NCBI GenBank assembly: GCA_036268855.1
Contig: DATATJ010000173.1
Location: 30,237 to 94,236 of the forward strand
DNA from: Vicinamibacterales bacterium
Lineage (GTDB): Bacteria; Acidobacteriota; Vicinamibacteria; Vicinamibacterales; CAVVIG01
Reading direction: 5' to 3'
DNA length: 64,000 nucleotides
Below are positions 2,729-51,157 of this stretch, piece by piece. Numbering within the stretch: the stretch's first letter is position 1; each line of letters opens with the position of its first letter. The notes below the pieces were generated by a model. That model was not told where the DNA came from. It saw nothing but the letters and a program-made list of their open reading frames with translations, and made no database searches. The position numbers and the translations under genes were made by a program.

Positions 2729-5209
2729 CTATTCATACCGCAGCGCCAGCATCGGATCGACGCGCGTCGCCCGGCGGGCTGGAAGATAGCCCGCCACGAA
2801 GGCCACGGTCGCGAGCAACGCCGTGGCGACTGCGAGCGCAATCGGGTCGGTGGCGGAAAGGTCGAAGAGCTGCGACTGCACGACGCGTCCAAGGGCGATC
2901 GCCACCGGCACGCCGATGCCGACCCCGACCGCCACCAGCACCGCCACCTCGCGAAGCACCATCCACAGGACCGACGTGCGCTCCGCGCCGAGCGCCATGC
3001 GGATGCCGATTTCGCGTGTCCGTCGCGCGACCGAGTACGACATCACGCCGTACAGCCCGATGGCGGCGAGCAGCGTGGCCAGCGCACCGAAGGCGATCGA
3101 CAGGCCCGCCACCATCCGTTCGATGAACAGCGAATCGTCCACCTGCGTCGTCATCGTCTTCAGGCCGTAGATCGGAAGGTTTGCGTCCGCCTGACGCACG
3201 GCGGCACGCAGGGACGCGGAGGCCGCCGCGGCGTCGCCGCGGGCGCGGACGTAGAGCGTCATCTCGTTCAGCTCGTCGGTCTGCGCGTAGGGCAGGAACA
3301 CGAAGCGCTTTGGCTCCTCGCGAAGGTTCGTGTTCTTGAAATCCTTGACGACGCCGACGATTTCGGCATCGTTCGCGTTGCTCTTGCGCAAGCCGAGATG
3401 CCGCCCCAGCGGGTTGCCGTCGCCGAAGAAGTAGTGCGCCATCGCCTCGTTGACGATCGCGACCTTGGGCGCGCCGTCCACGTCGCGGTCGGTGAACTCG
3501 CGTCCGGCCACGAGCGGCTGGCGCATCGTTTCGAAGTACTGCGGACCGACCGAGTTGATGTCGGGATTCATGTCGGCGCCTTCCTTCGCCTGGTACCCTT
3601 CGACCGTCACTGACGATCGCCATTCGCTGTCGGACAGGAGCGGAATCACCGACGGGGAGACCGCACGCACCTCCGGGATTCCGGCGATGCGCTGCTGGAG
3701 GTCGTGAAACAGGCGGATCGTCCGCTCGCGCGAGTACCCGCTGAGCGAAGGGTCGACGGCGAAGGCGAGGAGGTGCTCCGTGTCGAAGCCGGGGTTCACG
3801 TTCTTCAGGTTGTAGAGGCTTCGCGCGAACAGCCCGGCGCCCGCCAGCAGCAGCACGGAAAGGCCGACCTGCGCGATCACCAGCGCCTGCCGGAATCGTG
3901 CGTGGCCGGTGCCGCCGACCACACCCGACGACTCGTCCTTCAGCGTCGTGGTCAGCGCCGGCCGCGTGGACTGCATCGCCGGCGCCAGGCCGAACAGCAC
4001 GGCCGTGATCAGCGACACGGCCACCGCGAAGAGGACGACGCGAAGGTCGGGCGCTGCGACGAACGTCTGCTCCGCGCTTTGCGACGGCAGCGTGTGGACC
4101 AGCAGAGCGGTCGCGCCCCACGCGAGCGGCAAGCCGATGCCCGCACCGGCGAGCGCGAGCAGCAAGCTCTCGACGAGGCGCTGGCGGACGATCGTACGGC
4201 GTCCGGCGCCGAGCGCCAGCCGAATCGCCACCTCCTTCTGCCGCGCCGCGCCGCGCGCGAGCAGCAGGTTCGCCACGTTCGCGCACGCGATCAGCAGCAC
4301 CAGGCCGACCATTCCCATCAGCACGACGATCGGCGTCGAGAACTCCTGCCGAAGATCGGAACGTCCCTTCGCGCCCGGCTTGACGAACAGGTGCTTCGCG
4401 AGAAACCGCTCGCGCGTCTTCGCCGATGCACCCTCGACCGACTTCACCTCGAGCTCGTTGATCTGGTGGTAGAGCACGTTCATGCCGGCTTCGGCCTGTG
4501 GCGCCGACAGGCCCGGCTTGAGCCTCGCCATCAGCACGAGCCAGCGGCTGCGGCGATTCTCCAAATCGTCCCACGTGGGCGTCATCTGCGCTTTCAGCGT
4601 CACCGGCACCAGCACGTCCGCCGACTGGCCGATCGAGATGCCGAAAAATCCCGGCGGGGTGATGCCGACGATGGTCATCGGATGGCCGTTCAGCCCGATC
4701 GCGCGGTTCAGGATGCTGCGATCGCCGGCGAACCGGCGCATCCAGTAGCCGTAGCTGATCATCGCCGCCTGACTCCCGTTCGCGACGCGGTCGTCGTCTG
4801 GCATCAGCACGCGGCCGGCAAACGGGCGGACGCCGAGCACGTCGAAGTAGTTGCCGCTGACGAGCTCGCCCATCACGCGTTCGGACTGGCCGTCGATCGT
4901 GAGCGTCAGGCTGGCGTTGAAGCTGGCGAGCACGCCGTCGAACACCGTGTTGCGGTCGCGGAAATCGCGATACATCGGGTACGAGAACGTGTTGCTGTTG
5001 TTCGTCCGTCCCTGAAAGGGACCTGGATTCTCGAACATGACGAGCTGCTCGGGGTGCTTCACAGGGAGCAGGCGCAGCAGCAGCTGATCGGTGAGCGAGA
5101 AGATCGCGGTGTTGGCGCCGATGCCGAGCGCCAGCGTGAGCACGACGACGATCGTGAACGCGGGGGCGTTCAGCAGCGTCCGGATCGCGTAGCGGATGTC
5201 CTGCGTCAT
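2729..5209 (-). CDS. ADOP-family duplicated FtsX/MacB-like ABC permease (orphan, no adjacent ATPase)
   Basis: 826 aa. N-terminus MTQDIRYAIRTLLNAPAFTIVVVLTLALGIGANTAIFS is typical of the family. Two FtsX-like 4-TM modules separated by large extracytoplasmic domains. Confidence 0.85.
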   Translation of the reverse strand: MTQDIRYAIRTLLNAPAFTIVVVLTLALGIGANTAIFSLTDQLLLRLLPVKHPEQLVMFENPGPFQGRTNNSNTFSYPMYRDFRDRNTVFDGVLASFNASLTLTIDGQSERVMGELVSGNYFDVLGVRPFAGRVLMPDDDRVANGSQAAMISYGYWMRRFAGDRSILNRAIGLNGHPMTIVGITPPGFFGISIGQSADVLVPVTLKAQMTPTWDDLENRRSRWLVLMARLKPGLSAPQAEAGMNVLYHQINELEVKSVEGASAKTRERFLAKHLFVKPGAKGRSDLRQEFSTPIVVLMGMVGLVLLIACANVANLLLARGAARQKEVAIRLALGAGRRTIVRQRLVESLLLALAGAGIGLPLAWGATALLVHTLPSQSAEQTFVAAPDLRVVLFAVAVSLITAVLFGLAPAMQSTRPALTTTLKDESSGVVGGTGHARFRQALVIAQVGLSVLLLAGAGLFARSLYNLKNVNPGFDTEHLLAFAVDPSLSGYSRERTIRLFHDLQQRIAGIPEVRAVSPSVIPLLSDSEWRSSVTVEGYQAKEGADMNPDINSVGPQYFETMRQPLVAGREFTDRDVDGAPKVAIVNEAMAHYFFGDGNPLGRHLGLRKSNANDAEIVGVVKDFKNTNLREEPKRFVFLPYAQTDELNEMTLYVRARGDAAAASASLRAAVRQADANLPIYGLKTMTTQVDDSLFIERMVAGLSIAFGALATLLAAIGLYGVMSYSVARRTREIGIRMALGAERTSVLWMVLREVAVLVAVGVGIGVPVAIALGRVVQSQLFDLSATDPIALAVATALLATVAFVAGYLPARRATRVDPMLALRYE

Positions 5210-43338: not shown

Positions 43339-44025
43339 TCAATCAGGGGTGTCGAGCTTCAAGGCTCCGGTATAGATCGCCATGCCGACGACGGCGTCCA
43401 CGCCGCGAGCGTCGAGATCGTCGATTTCCTGCTGGGTGGTGATGCCGCCGGCGGCGGTCACCCGGCGCGTGGTCGCGTCGCGAACGGCCAGAATCGCCGC
43501 CAGGTTCGTCCCGCCCATGAGCCCCTCGGCGTCCACGTGCGTGTAGAGAAACTCGCCGCAGTACGGCTCCAGGGCGCGGACGGCCTCGACAGCGGTCAGC
43601 GACAGTTGCGTCTTCCAGCCGTGGATCACGACGCGGCCGCCGCGGCTGTCGACCGCGGCGATCACGCGGTCGCCGCCGACGGCATCGGCGAGTCCTTTCG
43701 CGAACGTCAGATCGGGCTGGCCGTCTTTGAAGAGCGCGGACCCCGCGATGATCTGCTGCGCGCCGGCTGCCAGCACGTCCCGCGCGCGCGCGAACGTGCG
43801 GATGCCACCGCCGACGCGGCACGACAAGGCAGCTGCGATCTCGCGAACGAGCGGGAGATTGTCGCCCGCGCCCATCGCCGCGTCGAGGTCGATCACCTGC
43901 ACCTTGGGAAACCGCGCGAAGCGCCGCACCCAGCGATGAACATCCGCGTCCCTGATCGCCAGCCGCTCGCCCTGGACGAGCTGCACGACGGCGCCGCTCT
44001 GAAGATCGATTGACGGAATCAGCAT
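43339..44025 (-). CDS. hisA: ProFAR isomerase HisA
   Basis: MLIPSIDLQSGAVVQLVQGE...VGGGIRT...GGITTQQEIDDL. ATG 44025 is preferred over the track's TTG at 44037. Confidence 0.8.
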   Translation of the reverse strand: MLIPSIDLQSGAVVQLVQGERLAIRDADVHRWVRRFARFPKVQVIDLDAAMGAGDNLPLVREIAAALSCRVGGGIRTFARARDVLAAGAQQIIAGSALFKDGQPDLTFAKGLADAVGGDRVIAAVDSRGGRVVIHGWKTQLSLTAVEAVRALEPYCGEFLYTHVDAEGLMGGTNLAAILAVRDATTRRVTAAGGITTQQEIDDLDARGVDAVVGMAIYTGALKLDTPD

Positions 44026-44050
44026 CTCGTTATCCAACGATCATGTGCGA

Positions 44051-44120
44051 ACCATGAAGGACACGAAGGCACGAAACGATTCTTGTACGCGATTCCTTCG
44101 TGAGCTTCGTGACTTCGTGG
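44051..44120. repeat. REP-like hairpin of the CACGAAG family, between hisF and hisA
   Basis: Left arm ACCATGAAGGACACGAAGGCACGAAACG. Right arm CCTTCGTGAGCTTCGTGACTTCGTGG. It fills the hisF-hisA intercistronic gap. Confidence 0.75.
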
Positions 44121-44900
44121 TTAAAGACGCACGGGAATGCCGCGCTGCCGCAGGTACTGCTTCAGCGATCGCACGCTCGTCTCGGCATAGTGGAAAATCG
44201 AGGCGGCGAGCGCCGCGTCGGCGCGGCCGGCGGTAAACACGTCGACGAAGTGGTCGAACCCTCCCGCGCCGCCGGAGGCAATGACGGGAATCGAGACAGC
44301 TGCGCTCACAGCCGCCGTCATCACCTCGTCGAAGCCCGCCTTGGTGCCGTCGCGATCGATCGACGTGAGCAGGACTTCTCCGGCGCCATGCGCCTCGGCA
44401 TCTCGGGCCCACTCCGTCGCGTCGCGACCTGTGCCGGCCTGGCCGCTGCGCGAGTACACGAGGAAGCGCTCTTCGTCACGGCCTGCCATCGCGTGCGCCG
44501 GCCGTTTCGCATCGATGGCGACGATCACCGCTTGACTGCCGTAGCGCCTGGCCAGCGCGGTAATCAGCGCCGGGCGCTCGAGCGCCGCGGTGTTGAGGCT
44601 CACCTTGTCGGCTCCCGCGTCGAACGCGGTCGCCGCATCATCCTCGGTGCGAATGCCTCCGCCGACCGTGAGCGGGATGAACAGCTCGCGCGCCACAGCG
44701 CGAATCGTCTCGGCCATGGCGCGGCGCCCCTCGAGGGTCGCGGTCACGTCCAGGATGACGAGCTCGTCGATCCCTTCGTCGTTGTAGCGGCGCGCCAGGG
44801 CCGCCGGATCTCCCGCCGTGCGCAGCCCCTCGAAGTTCACGCCCTTGACGACGTGGCCGTCGCGCACGTCGAGGCAGGCGATGATGCGCTTAGACAGCAT
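44121..44900 (-). CDS. hisF: imidazole glycerol phosphate synthase cyclase subunit HisF
   Basis: Start at [27 protein letters not shown]. Contains [11 protein letters not shown] and IASGGAG motifs. Confidence 0.95.
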
Positions 44901-44938
44901 CGGAAGCTCCGCGGCGCCTGGGTCCCTGTTGCGGCACG

Positions 44939-45535
44939 TCAGCCAGCGAGCTGCACGAAGTTGCGCAGGATGCGGAGGCCGGCCTCGCCCGACTTTTCCG
45001 GATGGAACTGCACGCCCGCGACCTGGCCGCGCTGCACGACAGCCGCAAACGGCTCGCCGTGTACCGTGACCGCGACGGTGTCGCCGGTCACGGGCGCGGC
45101 GTAACTGTGCGTGAAGTACATCTGCGTGTCCTGGGGGACGCCGTCCACGATGGAGGTCTCCAACCGCAGATTGAGCGAGTTCCATCCTACGTGCGGAATC
45201 TTCACGCCGGCCGACGGCAGCCGGATGCACGAGCCGCCCAGCAGTCCGAGGCCGGGAAGGTCGGGCGCTTCTTCACTCCCCTCGAACAGCCACTGCATCC
45301 CGAGGCAGATGCCGAGGATCGGCCGCCCTTCGCCGAGGCGGGCCACAATCGCCTCGGTCCAGGCCCCCTGGAGCGCGCGCGTGGCTTCGAAGTTGCCGAC
45401 GCCCGGTACGACGATCGCCGTCGCCTGCTCGAGATCCGCCGGGTCCGACGGCACGAGCACGTCCGCGCCGATGGCGGCGAACGCCTTGCGCACCGACGTC
45501 AGATTGCCCGCGCCGTAGTCGATCAGCGCAATCAC
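44939..45535 (-). CDS. hisH: imidazole glycerol phosphate synthase glutaminase subunit HisH
   Basis: 198 aa. [15 protein letters not shown]...GICLGMQ (catalytic Cys). Confidence 0.95.
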
Positions 45536-46107
45536 AACAGGCCCTTGGTGGACGGGAGCATCTTCGCGAGCCGTTTGTCCCGCGCGCAGGCGACGCGAAG
45601 CGCGCGCGCGAAGGCCTTGAACACCGCTTCGATTCGATGATGGCTCGATCGCCCGTACATCACCTTGACGTGTACATTCGCCCGGGCGCCGATCGCGAAG
45701 CCCTCGAAGAAGTCGTGCACCAGCTCGGTCTGCAGATCGCCGACGCGCGCCGCGCGGACCTTCAGATCGACGACCGCGTGCGGGCGGCCGCCGAGGTCCA
45801 CCGCCGCAATCGCGAGCGTCTCGTCCATCGGCATCAGGAAGTAGCCCGCCCGGTTGATGCCGCGCCGCGTGCCGAGCGCTGCCGAGACGCCTTCGCCGAG
45901 CGCGATGCCGAGATCCTCCACGGTATGGTGCTGATCGACGTCGAGATCACCTGCCGCCTGCACCACGAGGTCGAACGCTCCGTGGCGGGCGAATAGCTCG
46001 AGCATGTGGTCGAGAAACCGGATGCCCGTGCGGACGTCGTAGCGGCCGGTGCCGTCGAGCCGGATCGTCAGCGCGATCTGCGTCTCGGTCGTCCGCCGAT
46101 CGATCAC
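45532..46107 (-). CDS. hisB: imidazoleglycerol-phosphate dehydratase HisB (monofunctional)
   Basis: GTG start at 46107 overlaps the hisC stop (GTGA). [10 protein letters not shown]...[13 protein letters not shown]...[14 protein letters not shown]. Confidence 0.9.
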
Positions 46108-47147
46108 CGCGCGGCGCACAGCACCTCGTCCATCGCGGCGATGCAGCGCTGCGTGTGCGAGACGATGCCGGTGCCGATGCGGATGCAGCCGTCGCAGCCG
46201 GGCTCCGTCGAGCGATCGCGGATGTAGACGCCGCGCGCCCGGGCGCCTTCCACGAGGTCGGCGGTCCGATCGCCAGCGTGCACGAGCACGAAGTTCGAGC
46301 CGCTGGTCCAGTATCGGAGCCCGAGCCGATCGCACGCCGCGTACATCAACGCCTTGGACGCTTTCACTTGCTCGAGGTACTGAGCGAGAAATTCCGTATC
46401 GGCGAGTGCGGCCTGCACCGCCGCGACCGCGGCGATGTTGACGCTGTAGACCGGAATGGCGTGCCGGATCGGATCGAGCGCGGCCGGCGCGCCCACCAGG
46501 CAGCCGATGCGCAGGCCCGCCAGGCCGTACGCCTTTGAGAAGGTGCGCCCGACGATCACGTTGGGATGCGACGCGAGCTGCGGCAGGAACGTGACGCCAG
46601 AAAACTCCGCATACGCTTCGTCCACGAAGACGACCGCCTCTTTCGGCAGACGGGTGGCGATCGTGTGGATCGCGTCGAGCGGCATCATCACGCCGGTGGG
46701 GTTGTTCGGATTCGTCAGGAAGACGACGCGCGTGTTCGGCGTGATCGCGGCCAGCACCTGGTCGAGCGGAAAGCGGAACTCCGGCCGCGGCGGAATCTGC
46801 ACGAGCCGTCCGCCCGCCACGGCGGTGTCGAACCGGTAAATCTCGAAGGCCGGTTCGGGCACGATGGCTTCGGGTACCGGGCCGTTCCTCGAGGGCCGGA
46901 GGTACGACACGGCCAGCGCCATGATGCCCTCGTCGAGGCCGTTGGTCAGCGCGAGGCGATCCGCGTCCACGCCGAAGTGGCGCGCGATCATCTCGGTGGC
47001 CGCCGCGTACGGCGGATAGAAGCCGATTTGATCCGGCCGCAGGCGTGCGAGCGCCTCGATCACCTTGGGCGAGCAGCCCCCGGTGTTTTCGTTCTGGTGG
47101 AGGCGGAGGCCGTCGTAGAGCTCAGCGGGTTTCTGATATTGCGTCAT
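46104..47147 (-). CDS. hisC: histidinol-phosphate aminotransferase HisC
   Basis: Start at [21 protein letters not shown] (ATGA overlap with hisD). [14 protein letters not shown] contains the PLP lysine. Confidence 0.9.
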
Positions 47148-48403
47148 GGCTGGGACCGAACGGTTGTTGAGGGCTGCATCCGGATCTCGATCGATTCCGC
47201 GTGCGCGGCGAGCCCTTCGGCGCGCGCGAGCGGGAGGATCGTTGGCGCGAGGCGCGCCAGGCCCGTGCGCGTCACGCGCTGCACGGACATCACGCGCACG
47301 AAGTCGGCGGCGCCGAGCCCGCCGCGAAACCGCGCGGCGCCCCCTGTCGGCAGCACGTGGTTCGAGCCGATCGCGTAGTCGCCGGCGGCCTGCGCGCTGA
47401 ACGGGCCCACGAACACCGATCCGGCAGTGAGCGGACGCCGCGTCAGCGTTTCGCGATCGACGACGAGATGCTCCGGCGCCATGCGGTTGGCGAGCGCCAT
47501 CGCTTCGTCTGCCGTGCCGGTGACGACGATCGCGCCGTGGGCGGCGAGCGAGCGTTCGGCGATCTCGCCGCGGTCGTGCGACGCCACCGCCTCCGCCACG
47601 CGCGTCGCCAGCGACCGGTTCCACGTGATGAACACCGCGCGCGCGTCGGGATCGTGCTCGGCCTGCGCGGCCAGATCCGCGGCGATCCAGCTGGCGCGGC
47701 CGGCGCCCGCCACGACGACGATTTCGGTCGGCCCGGCGTAGAAGTCGATCGCGCAGTCGGCGGCGACGATCGCCTTGGCGACGGCGACGTAGCGGTTGCC
47801 GGGGCCGACGATTTTATCCACCCGCGGCACGGTGGCCGTGCCGTAGGCCAGCGCCGCGATCGCGTGCGCGCCTCCCACACGGAAGAGCCGCGACACTCCC
47901 GCCTCGAGGGCGGCCGCCATCACGGCCGGCTCCGGCCGGGGGCAGACGACGACGATGTCGCGCACGCCGGCCACACGCGCGGGGACGACCGTCATCAGCA
48001 AAGACGAGGGCAGCGGAAACCGTCCGCCCGGCACGTAGCAGCCGACGCTGGCGATCGGCTCGATGCGCTGCTCGACGGTCACCCCCGGCGCGATCGGCAG
48101 GTCGAAGTGCTTCGGCATCTGGCGCGCCGCCACGCGCGCGATATTCCGCGCGGCCGTGCGCAGCGCGCGGCAGACTTCGGCCCCCGCCAGCGACGCCTGC
48201 TGCCGCATCTCCGCTTGCGTCACCTCGAGCGGCGGTGTCACGTTGTCGAAGCGCTGGGCGAATCCGGCCAGCGCCGCGTCGCCGCCGACGCGCACGCGGT
48301 CCACGATGCCGCGGACGCGCCGCTCGAACGTGCGGTCCACGTCGGCGCCGTGCGCCAGGAGATCGGCAATCGCGCGTCGATTGTTCGCCTCGATGATCTT
48401 CAC
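47144..48403 (-). CDS. hisD: histidinol dehydrogenase HisD
   Basis: 419 aa, typical HisD blocks (e.g. YVPGGRFPLPSSLLM, DFYAGPTEI). Confidence 0.95.
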   Translation of the reverse strand: MKIIEANNRRAIADLLAHGADVDRTFERRVRGIVDRVRVGGDAALAGFAQRFDNVTPPLEVTQAEMRQQASLAGAEVCRALRTAARNIARVAARQMPKHFDLPIAPGVTVEQRIEPIASVGCYVPGGRFPLPSSLLMTVVPARVAGVRDIVVVCPRPEPAVMAAALEAGVSRLFRVGGAHAIAALAYGTATVPRVDKIVGPGNRYVAVAKAIVAADCAIDFYAGPTEIVVVAGAGRASWIAADLAAQAEHDPDARAVFITWNRSLATRVAEAVASHDRGEIAERSLAAHGAIVVTGTADEAMALANRMAPEHLVVDRETLTRRPLTAGSVFVGPFSAQAAGDYAIGSNHVLPTGGAARFRGGLGAADFVRVMSVQRVTRTGLARLAPTILPLARAEGLAAHAESIEIRMQPSTTVRSQP

Positions 48404-48454
48404 ATTCAGCCTGTCTGCCTGCCTGCCCGCGGTTCCGTCGGCCCCACGCCGCCG

Positions 48455-49342
48455 CTACAGCACAATCTTGTTCAGCGGGTATTCGACGATGCCCTCGGCC
48501 TGCGCCGCCTTGAGCCGCGGAATCAGATCGCGGACGGTCCGTTCCTCGATGATCGTGTTGACGGCCACCCATTCCTCGTCGCTGAGCGCCGAAATCGTCG
48601 GCCGCTGCAGCGCCGGGAGCAGGGCGAGGACGTTCGCCAGGTCGGCCCGGCGGACGTTCAGCATCATACCGACGCGTCCCTGCGCTTCGATGGCGGCCTT
48701 GAGCAGCAGCGCGATGTTCTCGATCTTCGTGCGCTTCCACTCGTCGGCCAGCGCATCGTGATTGGCCACCAGCTGGGTGTTCGACTCCATCACCGTGTCC
48801 AGGATGCGCAGGCGGTTGGCGCGCAGCGACGAGCCCGTTTCGGTCACCTCCACGATGGCATCGGCGAGCGTCGGCGGCTTCACTTCGGTCGCGCCCCAGG
48901 AGAACTCCACGTTGACGCCCACGCCGTGCGATGCGAAGTACGCCTTCGCGACCCGTACGAGCTCGGTCGCCACCGTTTTGCCGTCGAGATCAGCCGCCGA
49001 GCGGATCGGCGAGTCTTCCGGGGCGGCGAGCACCCAGCGCACCTTGCCGAAGCTCTGCTTCGCGTACACCAGATCGGCAACGCTCGTGAGTACCCCCGTG
49101 CGGCCGTCGCCCAGTTCGTGCTCGGCAATCCAGTCCTGGCCGGTGAGCCCCGCATCGAGCACGCCATCGGAGACGTAGCGCGCCATCTCCTGTGCGCGAA
49201 TCAGCATGCACTCGACCTCGGGGTCGTCGATGGCGGGGAAATACGAGCGCGAGCTCACGTAGATGTTGAACCCGGCGCGTGCGAACAGATGGACGGTCGC
49301 CTCCTGCAGCGAGCCTTTCGGGATGCCGAGCTTGAGTTTCAT
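48455..49342 (-). CDS. hisG: ATP phosphoribosyltransferase HisG, long form with regulatory domain
   Basis: Start at [20 protein letters not shown]. About 295 aa. Confidence 0.9.
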
Positions 49343-49376
49343 GCGTGACGAACGCTCTCCACCACCGAAGTGGCCG

Positions 49377-49697
49377 CTAGTTGGTGTCCTCGAGCGCTCG
49401 ATAGAAACACGTGCGCTGCCCGGTGTGACAGACATTCCCGTCGCCATGCCGCTTCACCTTGAGCAGCACGGTATCTTCGTCGCAATCGACGAGCGCCTCG
49501 ATCACTTCGAGCCTGTTGCCCGAGGTCTCGCCCTTCGTCCACAGCGTGTTGCGCGTGCGGCTGAAAAAGGTCGCGAAGCCGGTGCGCCGCGTCTCGGCGA
49601 GCGCCACCTCGTTCATGAAGCCGACCATCAGGACCTCGCTGGTGTCTGCGTCCTGAATCACGGCGGGAATCAAGCCGTCGAGCTTTGAATAGTCCAT
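49377..49697 (-). CDS. hisI: phosphoribosyl-AMP cyclohydrolase HisI (monofunctional, no HisE fusion)
   Basis: 106 aa. [21 protein letters not shown]...WTKGETSGN...[11 protein letters not shown]...CHTG. Confidence 0.95.
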
Positions 49698-49728
49698 AAA
49701 ATAAAAAACCCCGCCATCCGGGGCGGGG
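49698..49728 (-). terminator. intrinsic terminator hairpin of the his attenuator (CCCCGCC-CCGGAT-GGCGGGG followed by TTTTTTATTTT)
   Basis: 7-bp GC stem (49722-49728 with 49709-49715) plus a U-tract (49698-49708) that abuts the hisI ATG. Confidence 0.75.
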
Positions 49729-49758
49729 TTGCTGGTCGTTCGGGTTTCGCGTCAGACC

Positions 49759-49833
49759 CTAGATTGCGTGCAACTCCGCCGGCTCGCAGCCGCGGCTGAA
49801 ATGGTGGAGCACGTGATGGTGGCGCGGAAACAT
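49759..49833 (-). CDS. putative his-operon leader peptide, 24 aa (MFPRHHHVLHHFSRGCEPAELHAI)
   Basis: Hand translation: ATG TTT CCG CGC CAC CAT CAC GTG CTC CAC CAT TTC ... ATC TAG. Five His in seven consecutive codons. Located between the promoter-like hexamers and the terminator. Confidence 0.6.
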   Translation of the reverse strand: MFPRHHHVLHHFSRGCEPAELHAI

Positions 49834-49843
49834 GTCGCTGAAG

Positions 49844-49873
49844 AGCCTACCTGTACACGTTCGGCCGCGTCAA
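49844..49873 (-). promoter_or_regulatory. candidate his promoter (TTGACG-18 nt-TAGGCT on the - strand)
   Basis: TTGACG at 49873-49868, immediately after the MFS TAG stop. TAGGCT at 49849-49844, 10 nt before the leader ATG. Confidence 0.4.
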
Positions 49874-51157
49874 CTAGGCCGGCAGCGCCTGCCCTCGTGT
49901 TTCTTCGCCGAATGGCAGCAGCGCCAGGCCGATCAGGAACGCGATCGACGTGAAGGCGACCGGCGTACCGATCGTGTGGTAGTACGCCACGCCCGCGCCG
50001 ACCAGAAACGTGATGCCCGCTCCCGCAAAGCGGCCGACCGACGTCGCGAACGCGAACGCGCTCGCCCGGCACTCGGTCGAGTACTGCTCCGGCAGCCACA
50101 GCGTGTACATCGCGAAGTTCGCCCCGCCGACGCCGAGGAAAAACAGGCAGACCATGAACCACGACAGCGCGTTGGCGTCGAGATAGAAGACGTAGCCGAA
50201 GCCGAGCGCGATCGACACGAACATCAGGACGAAGTACAGGCCGAGCGTCACGCGCCGGCCAACCGATTCGGCGATCGGCGGCAGCACCACGCAGCCGAGG
50301 ATCGTGCCAATCGAGAGGACGATCGTGCCATACGACGCGAGCCTCGCGGCGTCCGGAGCCGACCGCCCGCCGCGCAGGGCGAGCTGCGTGACCGAGGTCG
50401 GCACGTACACCGATCCAGCCCAGAGACCGACGATCGAGACGAGCAGGTACACGGAGTTCAGCACGGTCCGCCGCGCATATCGCGGCGAGAACAACGCCAT
50501 GAACGCCGCGCCCATCGTCGGCCGCTGCCGCCGCTCCTCGACGCGCGTCCGCCATGCGGCCGATTCGTGCACGCCGTACCGAATGAAGGTGACGAGCAGC
50601 GCCGGAGCGCCCCCGATGGCGAACATCACGCGCCAGCCGTACCGGGCGCCGACGACGTAGTTGGCGATCGCGGCGAGGAAAAAGCCGAAATAGTAGCCGG
50701 TGTGCATGTAGCCGGCGCCGGCGGCGCGGCGATCTTCCGGCCATTCCTCGGCGACGAAGGTGCCGCCCATCGACCATTCGCCGCCGATGCCGATGCCGGC
50801 GAACAGGCGCAGCACGGCCAGCTGCCAGACGGTGGAGACCACGGCACACAGGAACGTGAACAGCGAGTAGCAGAGGATCGTGAACGTCAGCGTGCGGACG
50901 CGGCCGAAGCGATCGGCGATCGGTCCCCACACCATCGAGAGGCCCCAGCCGACGAGGAACAGGGCGAACAGGACGCTGCCGTAGTAGCCGATGTTGCCTG
51001 GCGTCGCCGCCAGCCCGGACTTCGGCAGCAGCTCGGTGAGCGCCGGGGCGAGGACCAGCGCGTAGATGAAGGAGTCCATGCCGTCGAGCGCCCAGCCGGC
51101 CCACGCCGCCCAGAACCCGCGTACCTGATTTCGTGTGAGCTGCGACCGTGTCGTCAT
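49874..51157 (-). CDS. MFS transporter
   Basis: 427 aa, 12 predicted TM segments. Contains the GPIADRFGRVRT motif typical of MFS loop 2-3. Confidence 0.85.
   Translation of the reverse strand: MTTRSQLTRNQVRGFWAAWAGWALDGMDSFIYALVLAPALTELLPKSGLAATPGNIGYYGSVLFALFLVGWGLSMVWGPIADRFGRVRTLTFTILCYSLFTFLCAVVSTVWQLAVLRLFAGIGIGGEWSMGGTFVAEEWPEDRRAAGAGYMHTGYYFGFFLAAIANYVVGARYGWRVMFAIGGAPALLVTFIRYGVHESAAWRTRVEERRQRPTMGAAFMALFSPRYARRTVLNSVYLLVSIVGLWAGSVYVPTSVTQLALRGGRSAPDAARLASYGTIVLSIGTILGCVVLPPIAESVGRRVTLGLYFVLMFVSIALGFGYVFYLDANALSWFMVCLFFLGVGGANFAMYTLWLPEQYSTECRASAFAFATSVGRFAGAGITFLVGAGVAYYHTIGTPVAFTSIAFLIGLALLPFGEETRGQALPA

Follow-up and report, generated by a model that had tools for sequence, protein, structure and literature searches.

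Attenuators in which a leader peptide senses histidine have been described in Proteobacteria, and certain Firmicutes are predicted to have them as well (PMC9413887; PMC2965389). In the enterobacterial hisL family (RF00514), a short ORF whose His codons form a run is combined with a terminator and a competing antiterminator, and together these control the first his gene, following the logic described in PMC9413887. The Firmicutes predictions, made for the Bacillus cereus group, Peptostreptococcaceae and Erysipelotrichales, likewise pair a His-rich mini-ORF with a terminator and antiterminator and give no RF00514 match (PMC9413887; PMC2965389). Two attenuators that sense other amino acids carry their sensor ORF at the very 5' end of the transcript or immediately beside it. 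These are S. meliloti trpL, whose attenuator RNA begins at the ATG (PMC7298713), and the leaderless poly-Cys sORFs of mycobacteria, which work as attenuators by sensing Cys and sequestering a ribosome-binding site (bioRxiv 10.1101/834739).

The window analysed here, by which we mean the full 64-kb stretch of DNA, carries on its minus strand an element that shares the ORF, terminator, antiterminator and controlled first gene of hisL. We consider it highly likely that the element, by a ribosome-mediated mechanism, attenuates transcription of the hisIGDCBH(A/F) operon in response to histidine, because every part of it is conserved across the genomes of about 65 Acidobacteriota. The analysis establishes computationally that all parts are present, that they are conserved and what their geometry is, and from these we infer the transcription start site, the stalling of ribosomes and the response to histidine in vivo. 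The initial annotation had proposed the same core, namely a His leader peptide with control of hisI by a terminator and an antiterminator that exclude each other. It is supported by the conservation of these parts and by a covariance model which, although built from relatives alone, recovers the window.

The enterobacterial his leader has a multi-hairpin layout, with hairpins A to F. By contrast, the acidobacterial element comprises three segments, lacks a conserved anti-antiterminator, has its start codon within about 10 nt of the −10 element, and precedes hisI rather than hisG as first gene. Nor does it match RF00514 in sequence or structure: a search of window positions 49400-50100 against Rfam 15 gave no His_leader match at E ≤ 10. 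No T-box match was obtained in the same region at E ≤ 10 or in 20 related loci at the gathering score, and those 20 loci matched no Rfam family at that score. The terminator alone gave weak Rfam matches to Leu, Phe and Trp leaders. The acidobacterial element is non-homologous to the enterobacterial hisL family and conserved across Acidobacteriota. A literature search found no description of a his attenuator in Acidobacteria, leaving the initial claim of novelty for this group uncontradicted; an earlier prediction is possible in the multi-phylum survey of Lopatovskaya et al. (2010, Mol Biol 44:128).

Leader ORF, promoter and terminator upstream of hisI

Related hisI loci (numbered from L001) were collected by a HisI protein scan with one genome per species. 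This gave 80 loci, mostly from MAGs of Acidobacteriota (Vicinamibacteria, Terriglobia and Bryobacterales), the closest of which shows 84% HisI identity. Enough upstream sequence was available in 77 loci, and a leader was sought within 350 nt upstream of hisI. A start-to-stop His-run ORF of 20–48 codons was found in 64 of the 77.

Re-reading the minus strand of 49300-50200 showed that all coordinates in the initial annotation were correct. The leader ORF (49759..49833, minus strand) runs for 24 codons from an ATG at 49833 to a TAG at 49761-49759 and encodes the peptide MFPRHHHVLHHFSRGCEPAELHAI, and homologous His-run ORFs accompany it in the 64 related loci. As had been claimed, five His fall within seven codons, in the order CAC CAT CAC GTG CTC CAC CAT (49801..49821, minus strand), and we take these to be the regulatory codons. 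Across all six frames of the window, this is the sole ATG-started ORF of up to 40 aa with at least four His in seven codons. Clustered codons for the end product, His, in a short 5'-leader ORF are a defining feature of an attenuator, and are present in the window and in the 64 related loci. The window leader has only five clustered His, interrupted by Val-Leu, and most relatives have more; the median across loci is 7 (range 4–10). Firmicutes leaders, by comparison, have 3–5 consecutive His, and belong to a different phylum and an unrelated sequence family. The rarer His codon, CAT, is enriched in the leaders of these GC-rich genomes, making up 52% of their His codons compared with 22% in the adjacent hisI genes (Fisher p 2.5e-8, without correction for phylogeny). 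Selection on decoding in the sensor, or on its RNA structure, would fit this enrichment: slower decoding may be favoured, or structure formed by CAC repeats may be disfavoured.

The leader ORF is preceded by promoter-like hexamers. The −35 hexamer TTGACG (49868..49873, minus strand) lies directly 3' of the stop codon of a co-oriented MFS-family gene (PF07690), whose TAG (49876-49874) abuts it. After an 18-nt spacer comes the −10 hexamer TAGGCT (49844..49849, minus strand), which ends 10 nt before the leader ATG and corresponds to a conserved TAnnnT in relatives. Among the 65 leader-bearing sequences, TTGAC followed by A, G or T occupies the equivalent −35 position in 53 loci, and the variant TTGCCA in one more. 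When the 70 nt upstream of the leader start codons were aligned, TTGACN with a 17- or 18-nt spacer and TAnnnT was seen in 54 of the 65. We also find a gap of 6–11 nt (mode 9) between the end of the −10 hexamer and the start of the leader ORF in 51 of 65 loci, versus 6 of 5310 other ATGs in the same loci (0.11%), which supports the promoter guessed in the initial annotation.

What that annotation had overlooked is that there is no room for a 5' UTR, with the −10 hexamer ending at 49844 and the ATG at 49833. Bacterial transcription usually starts about 7 nt past the −10 hexamer. With a distance of 6–11 nt between that hexamer and the start codon, the 5' UTR would be 0–5 nt, which is too short for a Shine-Dalgarno sequence. 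The leader ORF is therefore probably leaderless, or nearly so, as judged from promoter spacing. This placement would resemble that of S. meliloti trpL and the mycobacterial poly-Cys sORFs, and a prediction of leaderless genes in acidobacteria put their share at about 13% (PMC3160421).

Downstream of the leader ORF lies an intrinsic terminator hairpin, AACCCCGCC-CCGGAT-GGCGGGGTT (49707..49730, minus strand), found by folding and conserved in relatives. Its 3' arm includes segment 4, GGCGGGG (49715-49709), which is followed by TTTTTTATTTT and then by the hisI ATG at 49697; the U-tract, TTTTATTTT (49698..49706, minus strand), reaches this ATG. The initial annotation had placed the hairpin and U-tract correctly against hisI, but had given the stem as 7 bp, where we find 9 bp and −17.0 kcal/mol. 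The first structural gene, hisI (49377..49697, minus strand), encodes a phosphoribosyl-AMP cyclohydrolase of 106 aa (PF01502, E 1.8e-30), with which homologues align from residue 1. The remaining operon (43339..49342, minus strand) comprises, by Pfam matches, hisG (48455-49342), hisD (47144-48403), hisC, hisB, hisH (44939-45535) and two His_biosynth genes (hisA and hisF). In the window, the intrinsic terminator thus sits past the leader ORF and ahead of the first structural gene, which is another defining feature of an attenuator.

An RNAfold-based search for a hairpin and T-tract after the leader stop found both, 15–50 nt past the stop, in 61 of the 65 leader-bearing sequences; the other 4 have hairpins with weaker T-tracts. 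In all 61 loci except L029 (−9.8 kcal/mol), the stems lie between −14 and −29 kcal/mol. In a 24-sequence alignment of Vicinamibacteria type (A1), 98.1% of terminator stem cells are paired and 4 pairs have changed on both sides, giving a covariation score that was reached by 0 of 500 shuffles. A 30-sequence alignment of Terriglobia type (A4) has 97.8% of cells paired and three pairs with compensatory changes.

The initial annotation also noted that hisI lacks a Shine-Dalgarno sequence and has the U-tract abutting its ATG. This is true in the window but limited to it and its closest relatives. The gap between terminator and hisI ATG is 9–11 nt in the window, L001, L004 and L026 and 19–201 nt elsewhere, and some loci with a longer gap carry GGAG-like motifs before hisI. 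The long gap in the other relatives indicates that the compact, Shine-Dalgarno-less hisI start is a lineage-specific compaction. In the window's lineage, we infer that the hairpin may hinder 30S binding and so add a translational layer. An alternative is that control is mainly translational, with the hairpin, 9 nt before the ATG, blocking the 30S subunit, and the antiterminator freeing the U-rich leader, so that initiation would be gated instead of, or besides, termination. The four compact loci, with no purine-rich Shine-Dalgarno sequence next to their hairpins, would suit such a scheme, and leader-ORF attenuators of translational type are documented in mycobacteria (bioRxiv 10.1101/834739). 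We nevertheless consider it unlikely, as in most relatives the hairpin with its full U-tract lies too far upstream of hisI (19 nt or more) to occlude initiation, and the near-invariance of the U-tract among relatives points to selection for termination. The mycobacterial system also differs in that it sequesters a ribosome-binding site, whereas the acidobacterial element uses an intrinsic terminator.

Competing folds of the leader RNA

Transcription attenuation would require a second structure that excludes the terminator. Duplex tests and folds identify two strands that could form one: segment 2, CGGCGGAGTTGC (49770..49781, minus strand), which lies within the 3' end of the leader ORF and forms the 5' strand of the antiterminator, and segment 3, GCAACCCCGCC (49722..49732, minus strand), which is shared between the antiterminator, as its 3' strand, and the terminator, as its 5' arm. 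The complementarity at 10 of 11 positions that had been claimed between GGCGGAGTTGC (49780-49770) and segment 3 (49732-49722) is confirmed, and the duplex is stronger than in dinucleotide shuffles (−18.4 kcal/mol, z −2.95, p 0.007). Folded as a hairpin, the window antiterminator reaches −22.0 kcal/mol. An attenuator is further defined by an antiterminator that shares a strand with the terminator and has its other strand placed so that the position of the ribosome chooses the fold, and this is the arrangement found here.

For each related locus, the best duplex between the region from the His-run end to the terminator and the terminator 5' arm was compared with 300 dinucleotide shuffles. The native duplex beats the shuffles at p ≤ 0.05 in 40 of 61 loci, 18 of them at p ≤ 0.01. 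Segment 2 falls within the final ~25 nt of the leader ORF, the median distance from the end of the segment to the stop codon being 5 nt. With the register fixed, antiterminator pairing is seen in 70% of cells in A1, versus 23–46% in slid controls, and in 90.9% in A4, versus 24–59%. The covariation test suggested in the initial annotation gave a divided result: the terminator stems show compensatory changes, but covariation in the antiterminator is weak, with two pairs changed on both sides per alignment and shuffles that often reach the observed values. We also exchanged strands between clades. Vicinamibacteria segment 2 with the Terriglobia terminator arm gave −18.5 versus −19.9 for the native pair, and Terriglobia segment 2 with the Vicinamibacteria arm gave −17.9 versus −21.1. 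These energies are similar, and the swap does not discriminate because all arms are GC-rich.

Folds of the window RNA constrained by ribosome position support a switch between the 2:3 pairing and the terminator. A ribosome on the run's last His codon was represented by masking the RNA to 49788; with the transcript ending at 49716, the MFE structure then pairs 49780-49772 with 49722-49730. Masking of 49776-49747, for a ribosome at the leader stop, leaves segment 3 essentially unpaired, and the terminator is present in the full-length fold. Without a ribosome, and with the transcript ending at 49716, before segment 4, the 2:3 helix is again formed, so that co-transcriptional folding in the absence of translation predicts read-through. 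The MFE of the whole leader is not unusual against shuffles (z +0.46), a comparison that is uninformative since GC-rich shuffles fold equally well.

The initial annotation had included a further pairing, between segment 1 (49812-49803) in the His codons and segment 2. This does not hold up. Although the pairing appears in the unconstrained MFE structure of the window, it is no better than in shuffles (z −0.24, p 0.37 for the best upstream pairing there). Across the relatives, the sequence upstream of segment 2 pairs with it better than chance (p ≤ 0.05) in only 8 of 61 loci. In several sequences a hairpin directly downstream of the His run looked plausible on inspection. It was rejected as a conserved feature, as RNAalifold returned 0 consensus pairs and the local folding energy between the His run and the segment-2 end is not below that of shuffles (median z +0.33). 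In short, no 1:2 anti-antiterminator or pause hairpin of the kind found in the trp-type four-segment layout is conserved. With no conserved 1:2 hairpin, the conserved design consists of three segments, with the ribosome itself masking segment 2.

We see from the relatives that the segment-2 block is read in all three codon phases (phase 0 in 14, phase 2 in 9 and phase 1 in one), and the C-terminal tails of the leader peptides are unrelated (AELHAI, GRRSCA, GPVELC, RAARRH). Reading of one block in three phases indicates that the constraint acts on the RNA and not on the peptide. These observations also bear on the idea that the His-rich peptide is itself functional, for example in binding metal or as a trans-acting small protein like Sinorhizobium peTrpL. 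His runs do bind metals. Leader peptides can also act in trans (PMC7298713), but beyond the His run we find no conservation at the peptide level, and four leader peptides gave no Pfam-A or NCBIfam match at E ≤ 10, which together make a functional peptide highly improbable.

Occurrence in related genomes

The unit of leader ORF, promoter and terminator is present in the window and in 64 of about 70 acidobacterial hisI loci. The search of relatives for a His-rich mini-ORF and terminator upstream of hisI, which the initial annotation had suggested as a check, thus finds the arrangement conserved in about 65 genomes. The His-run leader is absent from the 7 Bacteroidota or Chloroflexota loci of the scan (labelled Bacteroidales, Parabacteroides, Cytophagales, Cyclobacteriaceae or Chloroflexota), and these account for 7 of the 13 hisI loci that have no leader. 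In the related loci, hisG follows hisI in 62 of 80, and the MFS gene lies upstream in 0 of 80. The absence of this neighbour, with hisG kept, indicates that the leader unit belongs to the his operon. That the hairpin merely terminates the upstream MFS gene, with the His-rich ORF a chance frame, is barely conceivable, and comparison with the related loci effectively refutes it. The MFS gene does lie in the same orientation, and no other terminator precedes the hairpin, but leader and terminator are present in relatives without that gene, a conserved promoter separates the MFS stop from the ORF, and the window contains no other His-run mini-ORF.

For the attenuator itself, we built a covariance model (R1) from 23 relatives (alignment A3), leaving the window out. 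In the window, R1 gives a single significant match, at 49699-49806 on the minus strand (70.8 bits, E 7.7e-16), and the next best scores 11.1 bits. It also matches upstream of hisI in Terriglobia and Bryobacterales loci, and finds nothing in the Bacteroidota and Chloroflexota loci of the scan. Together with alignments A1, A3 and A4, R1 provides a ready family, absent from Rfam 15, that can be used for annotating genomes and MAGs.

Several loci depart from the general pattern. Two Acidobacteriota, an Acidobacteriaceae MAG (L053) and a Pyrinomonadaceae MAG (L080), have no His-run leader upstream of hisI, L053 giving only a weak R1 match of 15.8 bits; the element is therefore not universal in Acidobacteriota. 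L021 and L066 carry degenerate versions. In L066 (2800-3003), the leader ORF, which begins MVAVRLTASHHHHSLGH, has no in-frame stop before hisI, with segment 2 and the terminator intact (R1 58 bits); possible causes are a frameshift, an error of assembly or decay of the leader. Three contigs with an acidobacterial-type leader bear other labels, two as 'uncultured Bifidobacteriaceae' (L019, L061) and one as 'Verrucomicrobiia' (L049). Their HisI is 61–77% identical to that of the window, and they are probably mislabelled or mis-binned. In a Vicinamibacterales MAG (L016), R1 located the leader further upstream, at ~2010-2147, with hisI at 3001; an 89-nt tandem repeat (2195-2976; 8.7 copies, 95% matches) lies between the two.

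Predicted operation of the proposed attenuator

Transcription would start at the TTGACG-18-TAGGCT promoter, a few nt from the leader ATG, and ribosomes would load on a mini-ORF with little or no 5' leader. With ample charged tRNA-His, the ribosome would reach the TAG (49761-49759) and cover most of segment 2 (49781-49770), which lies 8–20 nt upstream of the leader stop. Segment 3 would then pair with segment 4, and the 9-bp GC hairpin and U-tract would end the transcript just upstream of the hisI ATG. If tRNA-His runs short, the ribosome would stall on the CAC/CAT run (49821-49801), with its footprint ending about 8–10 nt short of segment 2. This would leave segment 2 to pair with segment 3 once the latter has been made, so that the terminator is blocked and RNA polymerase enters hisI.

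This reading gives a predicted attenuator in Acidobacteriota a concrete, testable function, and would extend a textbook control mechanism of E. coli to this phylum. Leader-peptide sensing of an amino acid would on these data be conserved across at least three acidobacterial lineages of abundant soil bacteria.

The attenuator may also differ from its E. coli counterpart, where the absence of translation leads to super-attenuation; the window fold instead predicts read-through. We tentatively propose, with slightly less than even confidence, a simplified design shared across the phylum (Vicinamibacteria, Terriglobia and Bryobacterales), in which a leaderless sensor ORF ties ribosome loading to promoter escape. 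With no 1:2 hairpin, the default of the untranslated leader would be read-through and not super-attenuation. In the window's lineage, the terminator would double as the only 5' leader of the Shine-Dalgarno-less hisI, coupling transcriptional and translational control. The fixed and very short distance from promoter to start codon would make this a natural system for studying leaderless translation and its synchrony with transcription in an attenuator that has no pause hairpin. On a separate point, the MFS stop codon and the his promoter's −35 hexamer (window 49868-49876) have no terminator between them, and any transcript reading through from the MFS gene would arrive at the leader ORF with a 5' leader ahead of it but with no Shine-Dalgarno sequence.
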